Positions 52,560 through 63,573 of a stretch of 64,000 nucleotides of DNA are shown here, in pieces. This DNA comes from Bdellovibrionia bacterium. GTDB lineage: Bacteria > Bdellovibrionota > UBA1018. The stretch is from NCBI GenBank assembly GCA_040399745.1, contig JBBARP010000005.1:118048-182047 (forward strand), in the 5' to 3' direction. The notes under the pieces are model-generated. The model ran no database searches. It was not told the DNA's origin and worked only from the letters and a program-made list of their open reading frames with translations. The first letter of the stretch is position 1, and each line of letters starts with the position of its first letter. The position numbers and the translations under genes were made by a program.

Positions 52560-53741
52560 TCAGGGCTCGATGTACTCGTAGAAGTCGCCCTTGTAGTTAC
52601 GAAGTTTCCAGGTCTTGCCCTCACGGCCCACCAGGTAATAGTCCAAAGGCAGAAGCGGAATCTTCCCACCGCCGCCCGGTGCGTCCACGACGAAGTGAGG
52701 AACGGCCATACCCGAAGTCCAGCCGCGCAGCTTCTTGATGATCTCGAGGCCCGTTTCGATGGGGGTACGGAAGTGGCTGATGCCTTGGGATTGGTCGCAC
52801 TGGAAAATGTAATACGGGCGAACGCGCATCATCAGAAGCTTGTGATTCAGCTCCTTCACGATCTCGGCTTTGTCGTTGATGCCCTTCAAAAGCACCATCT
52901 GGTTATTGATGATGCAACCTGCGTCGGCCAAGCGCGCGCACGCATCGAAGGCTTCTTTCGTGCACTCTTTCGGATGGTTGAAGTGAGTGTGAATGAACAC
53001 CGGGTGGTACTTGCGCAGCATCTGCACGAAGGAATCGGTGATTCGCTGAGGCAAGGTGACCAAGTTCCGCGTACCAAGACGAAACACTTCAATGTGGTCC
53101 ATCGAGCGCAGACGCGAAAGGATGTACTCGAGGCGCTCGTCCGAGTTCGAGAGCGGATCGCCGCCTGAAATGACGACGTCGCGGATTTCTTTATGCTCCT
53201 CGATGTACTTCAGCCCCGCTTCCAGCTGCGCCGTTTGAGCGGCCGAGGACGGGTCGGAAACCTTGCGCTTGCGAGTGCAATGGCGGCAATACACTGGGCA
53301 ATTGTGGGTGGTGTAGAACAGCACGCGATCGGGATAACGGTGCGTGACGCCCGGAACCGGCATATTGGCTTCTTCACCCAAGGGATCTTCCATCTCAGAA
53401 GGATGGATGAAGAGCTCGCCTTTGTTCGGAACGGATTGCAGGCGAATGGGGCAGTTCGGATCGTCCTTATCAATCAACGAGGCATAATAAGGAGTGATGC
53501 CCATGTTGAACATTTCATGGGACTGAGCAAACGCATTGCGCTCTTCTTCGGTGACGTTGATCACCTTCTCGAGCTGGTCCATGGATTTGATGCGCTTTTG
53601 CTGCTGCCAAATCCAGTTGTTCCAGTCGCGATCCGGAGCTTCCTTCCAGATATCGGGGCGTTCCGCATTCAGGAAGCGGTCGCGGACGGTGTTCTTGGTG
53701 ATAATCTCGAGCGCCATGGGAAATTCTCCGTGTAACTCCAT
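52560..53741 (-). CDS. KamA-family radical SAM aminomutase (lysine 2,3-aminomutase-like)
   Basis: The CxxxCxxC cluster motif CPVYCRHCTRKRK and the KamA N-terminal pattern (DWNNWIWQQQKRI...EKVINVTEEE). It is ~390-440 aa, larger than EpmB. Confidence 0.75.
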   Translation of the reverse strand: MELHGEFPMALEIITKNTVRDRFLNAERPDIWKEAPDRDWNNWIWQQQKRIKSMDQLEKVINVTEEERNAFAQSHEMFNMGITPYYASLIDKDDPNCPIRLQSVPNKGELFIHPSEMEDPLGEEANMPVPGVTHRYPDRVLFYTTHNCPVYCRHCTRKRKVSDPSSAAQTAQLEAGLKYIEEHKEIRDVVISGGDPLSNSDERLEYILSRLRSMDHIEVFRLGTRNLVTLPQRITDSFVQMLRKYHPVFIHTHFNHPKECTKEAFDACARLADAGCIINNQMVLLKGINDKAEIVKELNHKLLMMRVRPYYIFQCDQSQGISHFRTPIETGLEIIKKLRGWTSGMAVPHFVVDAPGGGGKIPLLPLDYYLVGREGKTWKLRNYKGDFYEYIEP

Positions 53742-53812
53742 GCTGCCAGAATTGGCGGTCAGAGTAAATCGAGGGGCTTTCCAGGTCCGCAGGTCCCCGG
53801 TACCCTTAGGGC

Positions 53813-54490
53813 ATGGTCTCTCAACTATTTTTGGGAATGTCTCTGGTCGGCGCGGAGTGGGTCCTATGGTTCTTGGTAGCCACATCTATTGTTTCGGTCG
53901 CAGTCATCGTCGAAAGGGTGCGTTTTGTACGCGACGCCACTCGCGGTTTAGTCGATTTTCGACAGGCCCTTCGATCTGAAGCCGAAAAAGGACGCTGGGA
54001 AGAGGCAAAGACACTCGCTCTCGGGCGACTGCAAGCTACTGACTCAAAAGGTCAATCCCCTCACAGCCAAGCGCCCGACCTCGAAACGGGTCTGGCTTTC
54101 GCGCTCTTGAGCCGAAAAACCCAAGGCCTGAGCCTGGACCCCGGAGTTTTGAACGAACTTTCGCGCGATCAGGTCGTTCGGGCGCGCCTTCGCTGGGAAC
54201 ACAACCTTTCCACTTTGGCGACCATCGGCTCGAACGCCCCCTTTGTCGGACTGTTTGGGACGGTTTTAGGCATCATTCAGGCCTTCCACGACCTTTCCAC
54301 TCAAGGGGCCGCAGGCTCGAGTGCCCAGGTCACCGCAGGGATGGCCGAGGCCCTCGTGGCAACCGCCGTGGGCATTTTTGTCGCGATCCCGGCTGTGGTC
54401 GCTTTTAACCTTTTGACCCGCCGGGTGAAGCGGGCCGTTGCCGAAGCAGAGGCCCTGAAGAGCTTCCTGGTCGGAAAGCTGGCGGGCTAA
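53813..54490 (+). CDS. exbB: MotA/TolQ/ExbB-family proton channel
   Basis: 3 TM segments with the conserved GLFGTVLGII and AEALVATAVGI motifs. Confidence 0.75.
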   Translation: MVSQLFLGMSLVGAEWVLWFLVATSIVSVAVIVERVRFVRDATRGLVDFRQALRSEAEKGRWEEAKTLALGRLQATDSKGQSPHSQAPDLETGLAFALLSRKTQGLSLDPGVLNELSRDQVVRARLRWEHNLSTLATIGSNAPFVGLFGTVLGIIQAFHDLSTQGAAGSSAQVTAGMAEALVATAVGIFVAIPAVVAFNLLTRRVKRAVAEAEALKSFLVGKLAG

Positions 54491-54494
54491 GCGC

Positions 54495-55001
54495 GTGGCG
54501 GGCGATTTCGGCGGCTCAGACGAGGAACTGTTCTCAGGAATCAACGTCACGCCACTCGTGGACGTCGTTCTAGTCCTTTTGGTGATTTTCTTGATGACCG
54601 CTCCGGTCATCTACCAGTCCGCTTTGAAAGTGCAGCTCCCGAAAGCCCTCACCGGCGAAAACCAGGAGAAGTCTCCGCTTCGATTTACTTTATCCCGCGA
54701 CGGACAACTGGCCTGGGGCGAGGAAGCTGTTTCCTGGGAAGAGTTACCTGCTCGATTGAAAGCGCTCGGCCCCGCAGCAAGCCAGGAATCTGCCACTCTT
54801 TCGGCCGATCAAGCCACTCCGCACGGAACGGTGGTTCGCTTGATGGACTTGCTTCGCCAGGCAGGAATTACGCGTTTCGGCCTGAACGTCGATGGAGCGC
54901 CCGGAGTCGCATCGCCCACTTCACCTGGCCTCGGCGCAAAAGCCACTCAGACAAAGGCTGAGCCAGTTTCCGCCGAAAAAAGGTCCACGCCAGGTAACTA
55001 G
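54495..55001 (+). CDS. exbD: ExbD/TolR-family biopolymer transport protein
   Basis: Single TM INVTPLVDVVLVLLVIFLMTAP and a periplasmic domain with a Pro/Ala-rich tail. Confidence 0.75.
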   Translation: MAGDFGGSDEELFSGINVTPLVDVVLVLLVIFLMTAPVIYQSALKVQLPKALTGENQEKSPLRFTLSRDGQLAWGEEAVSWEELPARLKALGPAASQESATLSADQATPHGTVVRLMDLLRQAGITRFGLNVDGAPGVASPTSPGLGAKATQTKAEPVSAEKRSTPGN

Positions 55002-55044: not shown

Positions 55045-56979
55045 CTAGTTCCACCCCAGCGCCAAGACGCCCCGGTAAACCAGGAAGGCAAACGCGTAGG
55101 CCAGCGCTGTTAGATAAAGCAGCATGAAAGCCGGCCAACGCCAGCTGTTCGTCTCGCGTTTGGCCACGGCCAGCGTGGACAAGCACTGGAGCGCCACCAC
55201 GTACCAAGCAAGAAGACTCGCTGCTGTCGCGAGCGACCACTGACCCCTCAGCACCGGGCCCAGCTCGGCCTGCACCACTTCTTCATCTGCGCCTTCGCGA
55301 GCCTCGACCGAGTAAACCGTCGCAAGAGCACTGACCATCACTTCGCGAGCCGCAAAACCAGGAATCAAAGCCACCCCGACGCGCCAATCAAAGCCAATGG
55401 GGCGAATCAGGGGCTCGATCGCATGACCGATTTTTCCAGCGTAGCTGTGGTCAATAGGCGCTCCGACTGAGCCTTCCGGAGCTTTGGGATAACTCGACAA
55501 GAACCAAACCAGGACCGTGAGCGCGAGGATGACCGTCCCTGCGCGACGAATGAAAACTTTAGCTCGTTCGAGAAGGCCAAAGCCCAAGTTCATGAAGCTT
55601 GGCCACTTGTAAGTGGGAAGCTCCAAAATCAAGGACGGGCGTGGCCCTTGAAGTACGGTCCGGCGAAACACTGCCGCCAAAAGAAGAGCTAAGAACAGAC
55701 CCGAGGCATACAGCCCCAGCATCACCGCTGCTTGTAAGCTCAGCGGGCCGACCGAGCGGTCGGCGGGAATGAAAGCGGCGATTAGGAGCGTATAAACCGG
55801 AAGGCGCGCTGAACACGTGGTCAGCGGTGCTACCAAAATGGTGACCAACCGGTCGCGACGATTCTCGATCGTTCGGGTGGCCATGATTCCAGGAATCGCG
55901 CAGGCATAGGATGAAAGGAGCGGAATGAAGGATCGTCCGTTCAAGCCCACTTTGCCCATCAAGCGATCCATCAGGAACGCTGCGCGGGCCATGTACCCGG
56001 AGTCTTCCAGGGCCAAGATGAACGCAAAAAGAAGAAGGATCTGCGGCAGGAACACGAGAACGCCGCCCACGCCAGCTAGCACGCCGTCGACTAAGAGGCT
56101 TTTCAGAGGCCCATCCGTCATCAAACTTCCCACGAAACCAGAAACGTCACCGACTCGCGCTTCAATCCAGTCGGCAGGGACCGAAGCCCAAGTGAAGAGG
56201 GCCTGAAACATCAGGCTGACCACGGCCAGGAAAATCAAGCTTCCCCAAATCGGATGAAGCACCAATCGATCCAAGCGATCGGTCCACGGAGTCGGCGCAA
56301 TGGCGCGCTTCACACACTTCGAGAGAATGCGATCGACTTCACCAAAGCGAGCGCGCACCTGCTCGGCTGAAGACTTCTCCCAGCTTTGAGCCGTACGCGA
56401 AGGCGGAGCTCGGTCCACCCCCTCCAAAGCCGACTCGAGCTGCGCAAGCAAGTCGCGCGTGCCCTGGCGCGCAGTCGCCACGGTTGCAACCACTGGCACG
56501 CCGAGTTCTTGAGAAAGGATACCGAGGTCGAGTTCCTGGCCCCGCGCACGAGCCAGATCCATCATGTTCAGCGCCAGAACCATCGGAATGCCCAAGTTCT
56601 TGAGTTCAAGAACCAAGGCAAGGCCGCGTTCCAAATTCGTGGCGTCAGCTACCGCCACCAAAAGATGAGGCTGAAGCTCAAGGGCGACCCGCCCAAGGAC
56701 CACATCGCGCGCGACTTCTTCGTCCAGTGTGCGGGCGTCCAAACTGTAAGTTCCCGGAAGGTCGAGCACGCGAATATCGCGCCCCCGACTGCCTCGCACG
56801 AGACCTTCCTTCCGCTCGACCGTCACGCCCGAGTAGTTCCCGACTTTTTGGCGTGAGCCAGTGAGCGCGTTAAAGATCGCGGTTTTTCCACAGTTCGGGC
56901 TCCCCACGAGGGCCATCAGCGAGGCTTCCACGGAGCCTTGAACCGACGAAGTAGAATGACAATCGACTGAAGTTTTCAC
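55045..56979 (-). CDS. feoB: Ferrous iron transporter FeoB (G-protein domain plus permease)
   Basis: GTPase G1 GSPNCGKT, G3 DLPG, G4 NMMD. The membrane domain carries gate motifs. Confidence 0.9.
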   Translation of the reverse strand: MKTSVDCHSTSSVQGSVEASLMALVGSPNCGKTAIFNALTGSRQKVGNYSGVTVERKEGLVRGSRGRDIRVLDLPGTYSLDARTLDEEVARDVVLGRVALELQPHLLVAVADATNLERGLALVLELKNLGIPMVLALNMMDLARARGQELDLGILSQELGVPVVATVATARQGTRDLLAQLESALEGVDRAPPSRTAQSWEKSSAEQVRARFGEVDRILSKCVKRAIAPTPWTDRLDRLVLHPIWGSLIFLAVVSLMFQALFTWASVPADWIEARVGDVSGFVGSLMTDGPLKSLLVDGVLAGVGGVLVFLPQILLLFAFILALEDSGYMARAAFLMDRLMGKVGLNGRSFIPLLSSYACAIPGIMATRTIENRRDRLVTILVAPLTTCSARLPVYTLLIAAFIPADRSVGPLSLQAAVMLGLYASGLFLALLLAAVFRRTVLQGPRPSLILELPTYKWPSFMNLGFGLLERAKVFIRRAGTVILALTVLVWFLSSYPKAPEGSVGAPIDHSYAGKIGHAIEPLIRPIGFDWRVGVALIPGFAAREVMVSALATVYSVEAREGADEEVVQAELGPVLRGQWSLATAASLLAWYVVALQCLSTLAVAKRETNSWRWPAFMLLYLTALAYAFAFLVYRGVLALGWN

Positions 56980-57269
56980 TCCGGAATCTCCCCGGTAATC
57001 AGAACGCGAATCTCGGAAGCATCAATCCGGCGAATGCCGATCAATGCGCCTCGAACGCGAACGGCAATGGGATCGCCCCCGAATGGAGCCTCGTGCATGA
57101 CTTCCACTACCGAGCCTTCAATCAAGCCCATCTCGAGCATTCGGCGAGCGGAATCCGCATCTTTGAGTGCGACTGACTCGATCACCCCACGCTGCCCCAC
57201 TGGAAGCGCGGACAGGGGAATCAGGGAATGCGACGAAGAACTGAACACGAAAAAATCCACTTCGTTCAT
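56976..57269 (-). CDS. feoA: FeoA
   Basis: SH3-like FeoA domain LPVGQRGVIESV...GLIEGSVVEVM...IAVRVRGALIGIRR. It overlaps the feoB start. The 5' end is uncertain: the track ORF extends to 57329. Confidence 0.75.
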   Translation of the reverse strand: MNEVDFFVFSSSSHSLIPLSALPVGQRGVIESVALKDADSARRMLEMGLIEGSVVEVMHEAPFGGDPIAVRVRGALIGIRRIDASEIRVLITGEIPE

Positions 57270-57289
57270 CTTGAGAATGATTCTCAAGA
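57269..57289. promoter_or_regulatory. Fur-box-like near-perfect 19-bp palindrome in the feoA / repeat-protein-array divergent region
   Basis: cttgagaatGattctcaag. The core TGAGAATGATTCTCA matches the 7-1-7 Fur consensus TGATAATGATTATCA at 13/15 positions. Confidence 0.5.
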
Positions 57290-57391
57290 TTGATTTCCCA
57301 TTCTTAACCCCGCCCGAGGCGCGGCGCAAGGGGGTGCTAGAAAGCCACGGAAAGGTTTCAGAAACGCTCGCTCATAGCCGATCCGAAACCT

Positions 57392-58570
57392 GTGACGTTA
57401 CGTTCGATTTGCCAAGGCTTCGTCGCCGGCTTCATCCTTCAACTGCTCGTTCAGACGCCGGCGCTCGCCCAGGAGCCGTCGGCTGATCCTTCCGTCCGGA
57501 TCGCCGAAATCCGCGCTCAAGCACTCGAAAGTATCCGCCTCTACTCGGAAAACGGCGGCCCGGGGCCTCGGAGCCCATACTTACCCCAGTCCCGAACCGA
57601 CGAAGAAATGTATCACTATGGGCGGCTTCGCCGAATTTCGCTCGAGCTCCATCGTTTGGACCCCAAACGCTTTGCCCAGGCAAGATCGCTCGAAAATTTG
57701 GCCCGCCTGCTCGTGGATGAACCCGTCGAAGGGCCCGCTTTGGCAAAACTACTCAGGACGGCGCGCTCCGCGCCGGACTTTGAAGAGCGAGTTTACGAAT
57801 GGCGGAAAGTCGTGGACCCCAATCTGGACGAGTCACAGACGCCTAGTAATCGCGAGCTCACCCGGATCCGCTCCGACGTCCTGAGAATCCTGGAAAAATA
57901 CAAAGCCGTCGGTCGCCCTAACCCAAAAAGCACCCAATCCGAAGAAGCATCGGACTCGGACCACCTAGAACAACTCAGCAGACGCCTCTTAAAACTCGAC
58001 CCAAAAGCGTACGGACACGAAGCTGGATTCTCGCGACTTGCGTTGATCTTCGACGACATCGATCCCGAAGTCGCAACTCTGCTTCGAAACACGCGAAGCT
58101 CGAAAACCTTCCTAGAACTGGTCAAAAAACGCACGGGCCAGGATCCCTTACTCGCGAGTAAGCAAAAGGTGCTGGAAGACCTTCGAGAAGAGCTCATCCT
58201 GATCTACTCCGAGTACGCAAGAACTGGAGGCCCTAGTTTTTATCCCAAGGACCCGAAGTCGCGCGAAGGCATCTACGAGATCAAAGCTGCGCGCAGGATT
58301 TCAGAGATCTCCTTACGAGTCAGCGAGATCGACCCAGAGCGCTTTGGAGAAAAAGCCTCAAAAGAAGCGCTTGCGCGCCTAATCGAGGAGGTCCCATTTT
58401 ACGGTACGCCTCTGGCTCGCCTCCTGCGAACGCACCGGTTACACTCCACTTACAAAAGATACGCGCGCGACTGGGTTCGAACGCTGAGAAATTCCTCGCC
58501 GCGGCGATCGGGCCAGTCTGCCGAGGTGGATTGCATTAACCTGAGACTTCGACTCGAAAGCGAACCCTAA
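57392..58570 (+). CDS. Secreted modular repeat protein, paralogue 1 (3 copies of a ~110-aa helical module)
   Basis: Signal peptide FILQLLVQTPALA. Modules carry the recurring [IL]xIYxxY-x-TGGP...RRLxxISxRLxELDPxRF...NLARLIE..PxEGxxLAxLLRTxR...W pattern. Confidence 0.7.
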   Translation: MTLRSICQGFVAGFILQLLVQTPALAQEPSADPSVRIAEIRAQALESIRLYSENGGPGPRSPYLPQSRTDEEMYHYGRLRRISLELHRLDPKRFAQARSLENLARLLVDEPVEGPALAKLLRTARSAPDFEERVYEWRKVVDPNLDESQTPSNRELTRIRSDVLRILEKYKAVGRPNPKSTQSEEASDSDHLEQLSRRLLKLDPKAYGHEAGFSRLALIFDDIDPEVATLLRNTRSSKTFLELVKKRTGQDPLLASKQKVLEDLREELILIYSEYARTGGPSFYPKDPKSREGIYEIKAARRISEISLRVSEIDPERFGEKASKEALARLIEEVPFYGTPLARLLRTHRLHSTYKRYARDWVRTLRNSSPRRSGQSAEVDCINLRLRLESEP

Positions 58571-58628: not shown

Positions 58629-60926
58629 ATGTCGGAGCTGATTTCAGCCGATTCGAAAAGAGTGAAACTTCGTCGTTTATTGCACCTCACTTGGATTCTT
58701 CACTTTGCGACGCTTGGGCTCTGGATTTCACCCACTCTGGCTCAGGACGAGGCTTTTGAAACCTACCGAAAAGAAGTTCTCGCCATCACGTCCAAGTACC
58801 CCGATCACGCCATTCCCAGGCGCAACGCAAGAATCTCAGAAAAACAGGATGCCGTTCGGCTCGATGCCATCGCCCATAAACTCTCGAGGCTGGACTCAAA
58901 AAAATACCCAATAAAAATCTCTCAGCACCAACGTCTCTCGGTCCTCATGAAGGACGCGTCCCCTGTTCTCTCGCTCCTTTTTGCCAGCCACAGTAAACAA
59001 CCTCATTACAACTCTCTGATTGAAGAGTGGATGGGGCGACCCACCGAAGCGGGACGAGAAAACCGGGAGAAAATTGAAGGCGGCAGAACTGAGGCGATTC
59101 AGATTCTGGAAAAATACGCTCCAAATGGCGGCCCGAGACTCACTCGCGGCACGGATGAACGAGAAGCTGCCGTAAAACTCGTCAATATTGGCCAACTGCT
59201 TCACCGCCTGAATCCCTTGAGATACCCAGAAAACAAAGACTTCCTCAAAAACGTTCACACGGGTGTTCGTGAAACTCGTACCGACTCAGCAGGACAACTG
59301 GAGAAGCTCCTCGCTGAACAAGCGGCTGAAGCGTTGGAACGGGAAAAAGTTCGTGCAGGCGAAGTGGATCCTCAATTGGACTTGGACCGATCCCTTTTGG
59401 AAAGGCGACAAAAGATCGAAGAAACTCTGCAAGCCTATCGCATCCAAGCTCATGGAATCTTCGTAAAATATGAAGCCACCGGCGGACCCAGGTTAAAGGC
59501 TCGCCTAGGCGAGGACGAACCCTCACGAGTCGAGATTCTCGACGCCGACTTGCTTCAACGAATCACCTTAAAACTTCAAGAAGTGGATCCATCCCATTAT
59601 GAAAGAACGAGCGGTCGAAGAAATCTAGCGAGACTCTTCAGTACCATTCCTGGAGAAGGCAAAGCGCTCGAAGACCTGCTCGAGCTTCGTGTGAATTCTC
59701 CCGATTTTCCCGCGCGTCTCGCCGCCTGGCGAAAGATCAGAGGCGAAATCGCAGTCACTCAAGCACCGAACGAACTCGTTCACCTGGAAACCCTACGTCA
59801 AGAAGTGATCCGGATTCTCGACAACTACCGCACCATCGGCAGGCCGCGAGCAACCCCTTCTGACCGGGATCAAGATTCGGCTGCAAACCGCCTCGTTCGC
59901 CTGGGGAGAAACCTCGCCAAGCATTTCCCAAATCAATTTGGAACCCTGGAGCCTCGCTCCGCGCTAGCTCAGCTGATCGAGGCCACCGATCCCCACGGCG
60001 CTGAAATCCTACGCCTCGAGGTGCGCTCGCCTGAGTTCAAAGAGGCGGTGCGCTTAAGAAATGGAGTGGCGCCCCTCTCTGCTCAAGCCGACAAAAGAAT
60101 CCTGGCCTACCAAGAGGAAGTGCTCGCCATTTATGAGGCCTATGCCAGCCAGGGCGGTCCCAGTGTTAGTCCGGCAGATCCAGAATCTCCTGAAGGGAAA
60201 AGAGAAATTTCAGCCGCAAGGCGCTTGAATGTAATCAGCCTGGGTGTCGGGGGCTTAGATCCCACCCGATTTCTTCCCACCGCGCAAAAAGAAAACCTCG
60301 CAAGGCTCGTCGAAGACGCTCAGGGCGGCGGCAAAGAACTGGCTCAGGTGATTCGATCGAGCCGCCAGACCGACGATTTTAAGCGCTCTATCCGGGATTG
60401 GAAAACGGCTCAAAGGCGCGCCGCAATGAATGTCAGTAGGCCGCAAGCTCCGGTGAAGGCAAACGAACCGACTCAAGCTGCGCAGAGTGATGAACCACCC
60501 GCGGCGTCGCCCGAAAAATCGTACCCCGACGCGGTTCGCGCTTTCTTAGATCGCTACAAGTCTGTCGACGCCGTTTTGAACGACAGCCTCAGGGTTTATC
60601 GAGAATTTCGAGACACCGGGGGTCCGATCGAATGGAATCCCCCCGCCACGCCTGGGCAAAAGCGAGAGCGATCAGCCGCAAGAATGCTCGTGCTCCTGAA
60701 TCATCGCCTTCACGAACTCGATCCTGCGGGGTTCTCCGACCCATCGAAGCTTGGAAACTTGGCTCGCGCCATCGATCAAATTCCCGGCGAAGGCCCAGCT
60801 CTAGCTGAACTTATGAGGACTGATCGATCCAAAGACCCGGCACTTCATGAAAGGCGACTGAAAATTTGGATCGCCGTTCTTGAAGAAGAAAAATTCATCA
60901 ACTGCCTCACGAACGCGACTCGCTAA
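58629..60926 (+). CDS. Secreted modular repeat protein, paralogue 2 (~6-7 modules)
   Basis: Signal peptide. Reiterated modules, e.g. ILEKYAPNGGPR, FVKYEATGGPR, IYEAYASQGGPS, YREFRDTGGPIEW. The C-terminal capping module ends W[IL]AV...FINCL. Confidence 0.7.
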   Translation: MSELISADSKRVKLRRLLHLTWILHFATLGLWISPTLAQDEAFETYRKEVLAITSKYPDHAIPRRNARISEKQDAVRLDAIAHKLSRLDSKKYPIKISQHQRLSVLMKDASPVLSLLFASHSKQPHYNSLIEEWMGRPTEAGRENREKIEGGRTEAIQILEKYAPNGGPRLTRGTDEREAAVKLVNIGQLLHRLNPLRYPENKDFLKNVHTGVRETRTDSAGQLEKLLAEQAAEALEREKVRAGEVDPQLDLDRSLLERRQKIEETLQAYRIQAHGIFVKYEATGGPRLKARLGEDEPSRVEILDADLLQRITLKLQEVDPSHYERTSGRRNLARLFSTIPGEGKALEDLLELRVNSPDFPARLAAWRKIRGEIAVTQAPNELVHLETLRQEVIRILDNYRTIGRPRATPSDRDQDSAANRLVRLGRNLAKHFPNQFGTLEPRSALAQLIEATDPHGAEILRLEVRSPEFKEAVRLRNGVAPLSAQADKRILAYQEEVLAIYEAYASQGGPSVSPADPESPEGKREISAARRLNVISLGVGGLDPTRFLPTAQKENLARLVEDAQGGGKELAQVIRSSRQTDDFKRSIRDWKTAQRRAAMNVSRPQAPVKANEPTQAAQSDEPPAASPEKSYPDAVRAFLDRYKSVDAVLNDSLRVYREFRDTGGPIEWNPPATPGQKRERSAARMLVLLNHRLHELDPAGFSDPSKLGNLARAIDQIPGEGPALAELMRTDRSKDPALHERRLKIWIAVLEEEKFINCLTNATR

Positions 60927-61000: not shown

Positions 61001-62611
61001 GTGAAACTCCATCATCGACACCTTCTCTTCTTGATTCTTTTTCTGGGCCAACTCTGGGCAGTTCAGACTCAAGCCCAGGGACCCAGCTTGAGGAAGGACG
61101 ATTGGCAATCCGTTCGGGATGAGGAAAAGAAATTCCTAAAGAAAGAGAGGCAACTTCTAGAGCTGAGACAGAAAGCCCTCGGCCTCATTCACCAGTATGA
61201 AGCTACTGGAGGTCCGCGCCAATACGCCAATAAAGGGGAGACTGAGCCCAGTGCGGAGGAAAAGAAGGCCTCCTGGGCTCTACGAAATATTTCCAGCCGA
61301 CTTCACAGCATCGATCCAGCTCAGTTCGAGAATACTTCCGACCGAAAAAATTTGGCGCGCCTTCTTCGCCATATTCCCGGTGAGGGTCCAAGTCTCGAAG
61401 CTCTATTTCTTCTGAGTCGCGCCGCTCCTGGTTTTTCTGCTGCTGTGTCCGATTGGCAGATGGCCAGAAAAAATCCCCCTACCCCAGTCGTTCACCAAAA
61501 CGATTCGTTCGATCCGATTCTTCAGGAAGCGCTCCAGATTCTCAAATCCTATCCTCTTCTCGGAAGACCGCGACTCGATTCCCCCACCAGAAAGGAAGTT
61601 TCAGACGCGAAACGCTTGGAAGTCCTGGGCCAAGGTATCGCCGAAAGGGACCCCAATATTTTTCGCAATCTCAGCCCGCTTAAAGCTCTGTCGCTCGCTA
61701 TGAAAGAAGTCGATCCAATTTCGGCAGACCTGCTGCGCCTGGACGTTCATTCAGAATATTTTAAATCCATCCTACGTGAGCGAAACCAAGTCAAACCTCT
61801 GATGCCCGAGGCGGAACACAAGATTCTCGAATATCAAAAAGAGGTCATCGCCATTTTTGAAACCTACTCCGATACCGGCGGACCAAGAGCTACCTCGACT
61901 CTCAAGAGCGAAGCCGATCGGGCTCGGGAATTTAAAGCCTACGTTCGCCTGACTGAGATCTCCAAACGACTCGGCGGACTTGACCCAAAGAGGTTTCTGC
62001 CGCGAACTCAGCGCGAAAACCTGGCCCGCCTAGTCGAGGCCTTACCGAGTGGAGGAGCTGAGCTCGCAGAAATCATTCGCAGTGGCCGAGGCCGCAAAAA
62101 AATCGAAAAAAAAATGAATGCTTGGCGGGCTGCTCGCGCGAAGCCTCAAGAGGACCTTCCCGAGGCGCCCGCGATGGCACCGAGCCGCCCGACTCCAGAG
62201 CGTCTCAGGAACTTCTTAGACCAATACACTTCGGTAAAATCGATCCTGAGGGACTCAGTAAAAATCATGCTCGAATACCAGGCAACGGGCGGACCCATCG
62301 AATGGGTGAATCCTCAAACGGCCAAACAGAAGCATGAACGATCTGCAGCCCGTATTTTGCAACACTTGAACGATCGCCTTCACGAGCTCGATCCAAAACT
62401 CTTCTCGTTTTCTGGAAAGTTCGGAAACCTTGCGAAAGCGATTGAAACCCTTCCCGGCCAAGGTACTGAATTGGCCGATCTTCTGCGAACGGATCGCGTG
62501 GCCGAGCCCGACCATTTCGAGCGAAAGCGCCAGACGTGGCTGGCGGTTTTTAAAAGTGATTGGTTCATCGATTGCCTCTTAAATGGCGGTCGGAAGGGCG
62601 GCACCCGGTGA
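61001..62611 (+). CDS. Secreted modular repeat protein, paralogue 3 (~5 modules)
   Basis: Signal peptide LFLILFLGQLWAVQTQA. Modules LIHQYEATGGPR, IFETYSDTGGPR, MLEYQATGGPIEW. The capping module is nearly identical to that of paralogue 2. Confidence 0.7.
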   Translation: MKLHHRHLLFLILFLGQLWAVQTQAQGPSLRKDDWQSVRDEEKKFLKKERQLLELRQKALGLIHQYEATGGPRQYANKGETEPSAEEKKASWALRNISSRLHSIDPAQFENTSDRKNLARLLRHIPGEGPSLEALFLLSRAAPGFSAAVSDWQMARKNPPTPVVHQNDSFDPILQEALQILKSYPLLGRPRLDSPTRKEVSDAKRLEVLGQGIAERDPNIFRNLSPLKALSLAMKEVDPISADLLRLDVHSEYFKSILRERNQVKPLMPEAEHKILEYQKEVIAIFETYSDTGGPRATSTLKSEADRAREFKAYVRLTEISKRLGGLDPKRFLPRTQRENLARLVEALPSGGAELAEIIRSGRGRKKIEKKMNAWRAARAKPQEDLPEAPAMAPSRPTPERLRNFLDQYTSVKSILRDSVKIMLEYQATGGPIEWVNPQTAKQKHERSAARILQHLNDRLHELDPKLFSFSGKFGNLAKAIETLPGQGTELADLLRTDRVAEPDHFERKRQTWLAVFKSDWFIDCLLNGGRKGGTR

Positions 62612-63573
62612 AAACACATCGGGCGAAATCAAGAGCCCCTTACCGCTTCCCCGTTCGGCAGCATCGTCGATTCCGTGTGCGAACGTTACTGCTGATTCTT
62701 CTCGGGGCTCAGTGGGCAGTTGCCTACTGGGTTCATGCTCAGGACTTCGAGCACAGCGTGAAGTATCAGGAACTCAAGAAGGAAGCCTTGGCCATCTATT
62801 CCCAGTACAAAGAGACCGGTGGCCCTGTTCGAAACCTTCACCCACGGAATCAAGCTGACATTTATGAAACTGCTGCGGCAGCGCGCTTGGGTGGCATCAG
62901 CACTTACTTAGGACGTAAGGCTCCCGAGCGCTTTCTGAAAGGGGCCGATCGCGAGAACATCGCGCGCCTCATTGAAGATGTGGCAGGCGAAGGCCAGGCG
63001 CTTGCTCTTCTCATTCGGACCCGAAGAAACGGGGAGCACTTCCAAGAAAGACTGAACGCCTGGCTTGGAGCACGCGAGGGGAAAGTCGTGGTCTTAAGCC
63101 CCGAGGCCGCAACCCTAGCCGTGAAGAGCGAACACCCCACGGGCGGTCCGCCCGAGCGACACAAGTGGATCCCGAGAAAGGCCACCGAAGCCGACATTCT
63201 TGAGGCCACCCTCAAGATCTACTCGGATTACTCGGAAACGGGCGGCCCCCGGTACTTTGTCGGAAGCGCTGCCAGTCTGGACGAAAAGTCCCTGGAAGAG
63301 CGCCGAGCTGGCGCCATCCTGAACCAGATGAACCACAAGCTCAGCCAGCTCGATCCGCTGCGATTTGAAGAAAACCACGGACGAGAAAACCTAGCGCTCC
63401 TGCTCGAGATTGCTCCCGGCGACGGCCCTGCCCTGGCCGCGCTGATTCGAACCCGTCGCCAGATGACCCCTGCGCTTCATGCAGAGAGGCTCGTAGCTTG
63501 GCAGCAGGCGCTCGCGGAGCGGAAGGCTCTCGATTGCATGCTTTCTCTGCCGGGAAAAACTCTAGAACAGTGA
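62608..63573 (+). CDS. Secreted modular repeat protein, paralogue 4 (3 modules)
   Basis: A GTG at 62608 overlaps the previous stop (GTGA). An alternative GTG at ~62676 gives the signal RTLLLILLGAQWAVAYWVHA. Modules IYSQYKETGGP, IYSDYSETGGPR. Confidence 0.6.
   Translation: MKTHRAKSRAPYRFPVRQHRRFRVRTLLLILLGAQWAVAYWVHAQDFEHSVKYQELKKEALAIYSQYKETGGPVRNLHPRNQADIYETAAAARLGGISTYLGRKAPERFLKGADRENIARLIEDVAGEGQALALLIRTRRNGEHFQERLNAWLGAREGKVVVLSPEAATLAVKSEHPTGGPPERHKWIPRKATEADILEATLKIYSDYSETGGPRYFVGSAASLDEKSLEERRAGAILNQMNHKLSQLDPLRFEENHGRENLALLLEIAPGDGPALAALIRTRRQMTPALHAERLVAWQQALAERKALDCMLSLPGKTLEQ

Follow-up and report, generated by a model that had tools for sequence, protein, structure and literature searches.

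What controls the ferrous-iron transporter operon feoAB in uncultured Bdellovibrionota is the question raised by a short intergenic region in a 64-kb stretch of DNA from a Bdellovibrionia bacterium (contig JBBARP010000005.1; the whole stretch is hereafter the window, and positions are counted along it). Between feoA and a divergently oriented array of paralogous genes lies a palindrome, which a preliminary description of the locus had read as a Fur-like box of odd position and unusual half-sites, possibly shared by the two units. At the level of sequence, this feature has what is expected of a Fur-family operator before feoAB, and we put at roughly 0.78 the probability that it serves as an operator for the iron-sensing metalloregulator Fur. 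feoAB is a standard Fur target, and its control by Fur is textbook knowledge; the palindrome is most likely an ordinary Fur binding site, predicted to exert control of that kind. For an uncultured Bdellovibrionota/Oligoflexia-like lineage it would be a first candidate for a Fur-type operator, from which a model of the regulon could be built. What is less ordinary lies at the periphery, namely the use of ArsR/SmtB regulators in sister lineages and an orphan family of secreted repeat proteins as divergent neighbor.

A Perfect Palindrome Close to the Fur Consensus

The inverted repeat is exact, two arms of 11 bp facing each other across a single base (ATCTTGAGAAT-G-ATTCTCAAGAT), and the predicted operator, to which no strand is assigned, spans 57268..57290. 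It had been introduced as a near-perfect repeat of 19 bp; these 19 bp (cttgagaatGattctcaag, 57270-57288) were found where they had been placed, the repeat itself being perfect and longer. Nested within it are a 7-1-7 core (TGAGAATGATTCTCA, 57272-57286) and a 17-mer (TTGAGAATNATTCTCAA, 57271-57287), which we scored against consensus sequences quoted in PMC4506495 and PMC545781. The core agrees with the 7-1-7 Fur box TGATAATNATTATCA at 13 of 15 positions, which reproduces the earlier count, and both mismatches fall at symmetrical positions. Against the 19-mer of Escherichia coli and Pseudomonas aeruginosa (GATAATGATAATCATTATC) the site matches at 14/19 positions, and against the delta-proteobacterial dFUR box (WTGAAAATNATTTTCAW), a consensus drawn from Geobacter, Desulfuromonas, and Desulfovibrio and not from Bdellovibrionota, at 15/17. 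In simulated sequence with the first-order composition of the window, Fur matches of such quality are expected about 0.02 times per 64 kb and perfect 11-1-11 palindromes 0.02-0.03 times per 64 kb. Taken jointly, the palindrome, its match to the Fur consensus, and its place in the ~140-bp region upstream of feoA are far beyond chance. The G+C content of the palindrome is 30%, against 57% for the window.

Set beside the classical box of E. coli and P. aeruginosa (7-1-7 form TGATAATnATTATCA), to which it is thus close and with perfect dyad symmetry, the site displays the same 7-1-7 repeat, TGA...TCA ends, and AAT-n-ATT center, and likewise occupies the promoter or leader of an iron-uptake operon; moreover, its left arm contains a -10-like hexamer, GAGAAT, just as the classical boxes contain GATAAT. 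It differs by a G/C for T/A at the symmetrical positions 4/12 and by a palindrome longer than usual, perfect over 23 bp. The dFUR box, itself palindromic over 17 bp, has been predicted to precede feoAB operons and fur genes (Rodionov et al. 2004, PMC545781), with variants among the listed sites, such as tTGAcAATCATTcTCAT before feoA3 (PMC545781), and the predicted delta-proteobacterial Fur boxes of feoAB lie mostly at about -30 to -100 (PMC545781). The window site, at -39, falls within this positional range; unlike the dFUR consensus, it carries G/C where the latter has A/T. A search of the literature gave nothing specific on a Fur box in Bdellovibrio, and no described Fur regulon was found for the uncultured Bdellovibrionota-like lineage.

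The feoA Start Codon and the Position of the Box

How the box should be understood depends on where feoA begins. The preliminary description had favored ATG 57269, which the palindrome abuts (the outer AT of the palindrome is indeed common to both), and noted that the box would lie inside the coding frame should a longer open reading frame (ORF) from 57329 be real, a position that it called odd and a start that it wished resolved. We compared the locus with two close relatives, L082 (FeoB 97% identical) and L083 (FeoB 92% identical). Between ATG 57269 and GTG 57248, L082 has a deletion of 2 nt and L083 one of 1 nt, and the stretch is consequently read in three different frames across the three loci. 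Since these indels break the frame, neither ATG 57269 nor TTG 57329 is a conserved start, and both were rejected as the beginning of feoA: the former would give the 97-aa product called on a 28-kb Logan contig with the same DNA, the latter a product of 117 aa. Judged from the alignments, the conserved start is GTG 57248, with a product of 90 aa, as in the annotated feoA of L082. The Pfam FeoA domain sets in 9 residues past this start (V28 of the long ORF), ten FeoA homologues have their N-termini 0-6 residues ahead of a conserved LGEL motif, and the window and L083 show no sequence relationship in their N-terminal "extensions." We therefore correct the gene model to a feoA of 90 aa rather than 97 or 117 (56976..57248, minus strand; Pfam FeoA, E 8.6e-19), and regard 57249..57329, on the same strand, as a noncoding 5' region that mimics an N-terminal extension in an unconserved frame. 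The following gene, feoB (55045..56979, minus strand), is recognized by the Pfam domains FeoB_N, Gate, and FeoB_C and by its homologues, whose names point to uncultured Bdellovibrionota/Oligoflexia; it overlaps the feoA stop by 4 nt, and the two thus form an operon.

With this gene model, the palindrome is centered 31 nt from GTG 57248, and the 17-mer, at its 5' end, is 39 nt upstream of this codon. The palindrome is noncoding, and the oddity of an operator inside a gene therefore disappears: on the corrected start, the box stands outside coding sequence, in the promoter or leader of a gene for iron acquisition, and about -39 is a normal place for a Fur operator.

Conservation of the Site in Relatives

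The palindrome and some 40 bp upstream of it are kept across the window, L082, and L083. In L082 both arms are intact and the central base differs; in L083 there is a single change, at the base beside the center. The conserved upstream block (57291..57331, minus strand), seen in the alignment of the three loci, includes a GC-rich stretch and a -35-like TTGCGC (57329-57324), and homology between the three stops at about 57332. Further away, L087 (FeoB 67% identical) has AATAAAGATAATCATTCTC 34 nt ahead of the feoA ATG; this sequence agrees with the Fur box of E. coli at 16/19 positions, and its right arm ATTCTCAAG is also found in the window. No regulator gene stands ahead of feoA in L087. In L211, TGAGACTCAATCTCA is found ~96 nt upstream of feoA. 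The site is therefore conserved in the orthologous upstream regions of the close relatives, with related boxes in L087 and L211.

The Motif in Other Organisms

Regulon-type motif scans were carried out across other organisms; in the source genome, they covered the 64-kb window. Among 80 genome loci retrieved with FeoB, two of them Bdellovibrionota-like, the generic box TGANAATNATTNTCA, at up to one mismatch, has 14 occurrences within 600 bp before feoB, against 8 over the other 871 kb, a 33-fold higher density before feoAB than elsewhere. The TGAGAAT arm is present in several boxes before feoA (e.g. TGAGAATCATTGTTA and TGAGAATCATTATCA), and the GAGAAT half-site, which had been singled out as a special variant, also precedes feoA in Herminiimonas, Oxalicibacterium, and gammaproteobacterial genomes. 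Given this recurrence, the GAGAAT box is an ordinary part of the Fur-box spectrum and loses its special status.

An independent view, unbiased by gene, came from public metagenome contigs searched for the exact 17-mer TTGAGAATNATTCTCAA, which returned at least 81 sites in at least 80 loci. Bacterial DNA is mostly coding; 57 of the 81 listed sites lie outside any ORF of at least 150 aa. We compared the 78 ORFs whose starts fall no further than 300 bp from intergenic sites with 78 control ORFs located on the same contigs at distances above 1.5 kb from a site. Among the matches listed, to which all neighbor counts here refer, the neighbors include four ZnuA-family proteins (and one further partial ZnuA/AdcA-like ORF), three Fe(III)-type solute-binding proteins (SBPs), two members of the FUR family, one of which scores best against Fur models, two MtrC/MtrF cytochromes, and, once each, FeoB, a siderophore-interacting protein (SIP), Haem_bd, HemS/ChuX, and an ECF sigma factor. 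None of these metal or fur families is represented among the 78 controls, in which two TonB-receptor Plug domains were found. Metal-uptake and fur genes thus make up 12/78 neighbors versus 0/78 controls (Fisher p = 3e-4), or 14/78 versus 2/78 on a wider count (Fisher p = 3e-3).

Promoter, Leader, and Predicted Mode of Control

Which protein binds, which promoter elements it covers, and in which direction it regulates we infer as follows. Loaded with Fe(II), Fur would occupy the 7-1-7 core as one dimer or as two; this core, ~39 nt upstream of GTG 57248, would overlap the likely -10 or transcription start region. When iron is sufficient, Fur would block transcription of feoAB, and under iron limitation this repression would be lifted. 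Two candidate promoters were read by hand. The first combines TTAAGA (57307-57302) with GAGAAT (57285-57280) across 16 nt, an 8/12 match, and would place the putative -10 (57280..57285, minus strand) inside the left arm of the box, in the place taken by GATAAT in the box of L087; were it used, Fur would occlude RNA polymerase. The second pairs TTGCGC (57329-57324) with AAGAAT across 18 nt; in that case the box would lie at about +4 to +26 and Fur might act as a roadblock, a leader hairpin being also possible.

The candidate -35 TTAAGA coincides with a third, half-site-like copy, TTAAGAAT (57300..57307, minus strand; repeat pair I15, TTGAGAATG / CATTCTTAA). This is a direct repeat of the arm TTGAGAAT, 20 nt upstream on the feoA strand, and is identical in L082 and L083; it might, speculatively, support a further dimer.

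Fur and Alternative Readings of the Palindrome

The Fur-box reading of the preliminary description stands, as a prediction, on the consensus matches, the place before feoAB, the conservation in close relatives, the box of L087, and the enrichment of the motif in metagenomes. Several observations weigh against it. The palindrome by itself is only moderately unusual, since an arm of at least 11 bp arises in ~14% of shuffles when four spacer lengths are allowed; the scan of the window with the generic TGANAATNATTNTCA at up to two mismatches gave no second site in the 64 kb (at three mismatches, the number of matches is at or below chance). The conservation of the arms is statistically weak when taken alone, because L082 and L083 are too similar to the window. 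A consensus scan for sigma-70 promoters found none at threshold, and the two hand-read candidates are accordingly weak. Neither the window nor the regions flanking the locus in close relatives gave a tblastn match to Fur or Zur of E. coli or to Fur or PerR of B. subtilis. Most relatives with FeoB at 64-69% identity lack a 7-1-7 box and carry an ArsR/SmtB gene before feoA, so that the box is not ancestral to the clade. Finally, the motif alone cannot tell Fur from Zur or Mur, because the exact 17-mer lies most often beside ZnuA-family genes among the matches listed.

This last point leads to the alternative that fares best, that is, an operator of another Fur-family paralogue (Zur, Mur/Mn-Fur, PerR, or Nur) through which feoAB would answer to zinc, manganese, or peroxide. 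ZnuA-family proteins are the commonest neighbors of the 17-mer (4/78 among the matches listed, plus the partial ZnuA/AdcA-like ORF), and the 7-1-7 architecture is common to Fur-family boxes, being established for B. subtilis Fur, PerR, and Zur. Nonetheless, ZnuA-family transporters include Fe/Mn importers under Fur control, the neighbors also comprise iron-specific genes (FeoB, SIP, HemS, Haem_bd, and the Fe(III) SBP), one neighboring FUR-family gene scores best as Fur, and the target here is a ferrous-iron transporter. In the B. subtilis scheme, Fur boxes end in TGA...TCA, Zur boxes in TCG (TCGTAAT), and PerR boxes in TTA (TTATAAT). The window site shows neither the half-site ends of Zur or PerR nor a zinc or peroxide target: its arms read TGAGAAT and it precedes feoAB. 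Fur is favored on these grounds, that is, the nature of the target, the TGA/TCA ends under this scheme, and the iron-specific genes beside the 17-mer, and we consider control by a paralogue improbable.

A role at the level of RNA, in which a stem-loop in the feoAB 5' leader would affect mRNA stability or translation with no protein operator involved, appears very improbable. A hairpin of 9-10 bp is predicted at the palindrome (minimum free energy -33.4 kcal/mol over 96 nt, z = -2.7 against shuffles), and a transcript started from the upstream candidate (TTGCGC ... AAGAAT) would include the whole palindrome; yet any perfect palindrome is expected to fold in this manner. Moreover, no U-tract follows the palindrome and the consensus scan returned no terminator-like site, the hairpin covers neither the start codon nor a Shine-Dalgarno sequence, and Rfam covariance models gave no match (E up to 1) in 56900-57500. 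Nor would an RNA role account for the match to the Fur box, or for the occurrence of the 17-mer beside metal genes of unrelated organisms. Equally slight is the chance that the palindrome serves an unrelated dimeric regulator or is a functionless coincidence: the frequency of perfect arms of at least 11 bp in the shuffled windows and the absence of a visible cognate regulator nearby would suit it, but a perfect palindrome, a 13/15 match, and a distance of at most about 40 nt from the feoA start are very unlikely to coincide, and the site is kept in relatives. FNR (TTGAT-N4-ATCAA) and CRP (TGTGA-N6-TCACA) sites were discarded on reading the sequence, as their half-site spacings do not fit.

Operon-Encoded Regulators in Sister Lineages

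In six loci of the sister lineages, a gene for an ArsR/SmtB metalloregulator (NF033788) overlaps the start of feoA (L002 5404-5992; L084 2813-3384; L085 9361-9980; L086 9400-10004; L088 9422-10008; L210 2376-3004). An AT-rich motif of the ATATAAGCA type lies upstream of the regulator gene, and none of the six loci has a 7-1-7 box, which is present in the lineages without the ArsR/SmtB gene, namely the window clade, L087, and L211. These operons share with the window the same feoAB orthologues (FeoB 64-69% identical) and a metal-type regulatory input directly upstream; by contrast, the feoAB operon of the window lineage contains no regulator gene and is preceded by a Fur-type box. The distribution, in a small sample of six loci versus three lineages, suggests that this operon is served by alternative regulators, and control of feoAB in the clade may have switched between an operon-encoded ArsR/SmtB protein and Fur.

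The Divergent Array and Neighboring Genes

The distance of ~100 bp noted earlier between the palindrome and the divergent array was recovered: the first array gene (57392..58570, plus strand), which codes for a secreted helical-repeat protein of 392 aa, begins 101 nt past the palindrome. Three further complete genes follow on the plus strand (58629-60926, 61001-62611, and 62560-63573), and a fifth is cut by the end of the window. The fourth, with a listed start at TTG 62560, overlaps the end of the third by 52 nt (62560-62611); its true start is probably further downstream, since the L082 orthologue is called shorter (320 aa). Overall, the array comprises ~14 modules of roughly 120 aa, with the consensus Y..TGGPR ... 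RL..IS..L..LDP.RF ... NLARL.E..PG.GP.LA.LLR. The proteins have no Pfam match; AlphaFold2, run on the module alignment, predicts a confident five-helix domain (pLDDT 93.9). When 1.84 billion representative proteins were searched exhaustively with HMMER, eight strong members only were returned, and the family is thus an orphan, restricted to this lineage and without relatives in fold or sequence.

Is the array under the same control as feoAB? In other systems, two divergent promoters can share a single Fur site, and the E. coli ent-fep cluster offers a bidirectional Fur-controlled intergenic region, which the window resembles in having one Fur-type site in a short region between divergent units. 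By analogy, co-regulation of the array by the feoAB box is possible. However, unlike in ent-fep, the divergent neighbor varies between close relatives and the array has no recognizable link to iron. In L082 and L083, the 392-aa gene is absent from this position, and a gene for a 92-aa "transporter suffix domain" membrane protein (NF033684) stands between feoA and the array, on the strand of the latter (L082 6264-6542, minus; L083 1742-2020, minus), which points to a recent rearrangement right beside the operator, with a breakpoint near 57332. In the window, the array genes show no Fur-type box of their own, and no promoter was located for the array. That a single Fur-type operator serves both units, with the array induced by iron starvation as a new kind of extracellular factor for iron stress or iron acquisition, is an idea that we hold as improbable.

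On the other side of feoAB, beyond feoB, lie a convergent exbB-exbD pair and a KamA-like radical SAM gene. This gene, a small ORF downstream of it, and exbB-exbD (52560-55001) stay beside feoAB in relatives with FeoB at 66-97% identity, including L088, L210, and L084; in the window, neither tonB nor a gene for a TonB-dependent receptor is seen next to them. In more distant relatives, an ORF of 63-71 aa overlaps the 3' end of feoB (L085 11878-12084; L087 11905-12117; L088 11908-12114; L210 4868-5059; L211 4896-5111); the window lacks this ORF, and exbD there converges on feoB. One of these ORFs gave a weak match to DUF6587, under the curated cutoff, and they might encode a small Feo accessory protein.
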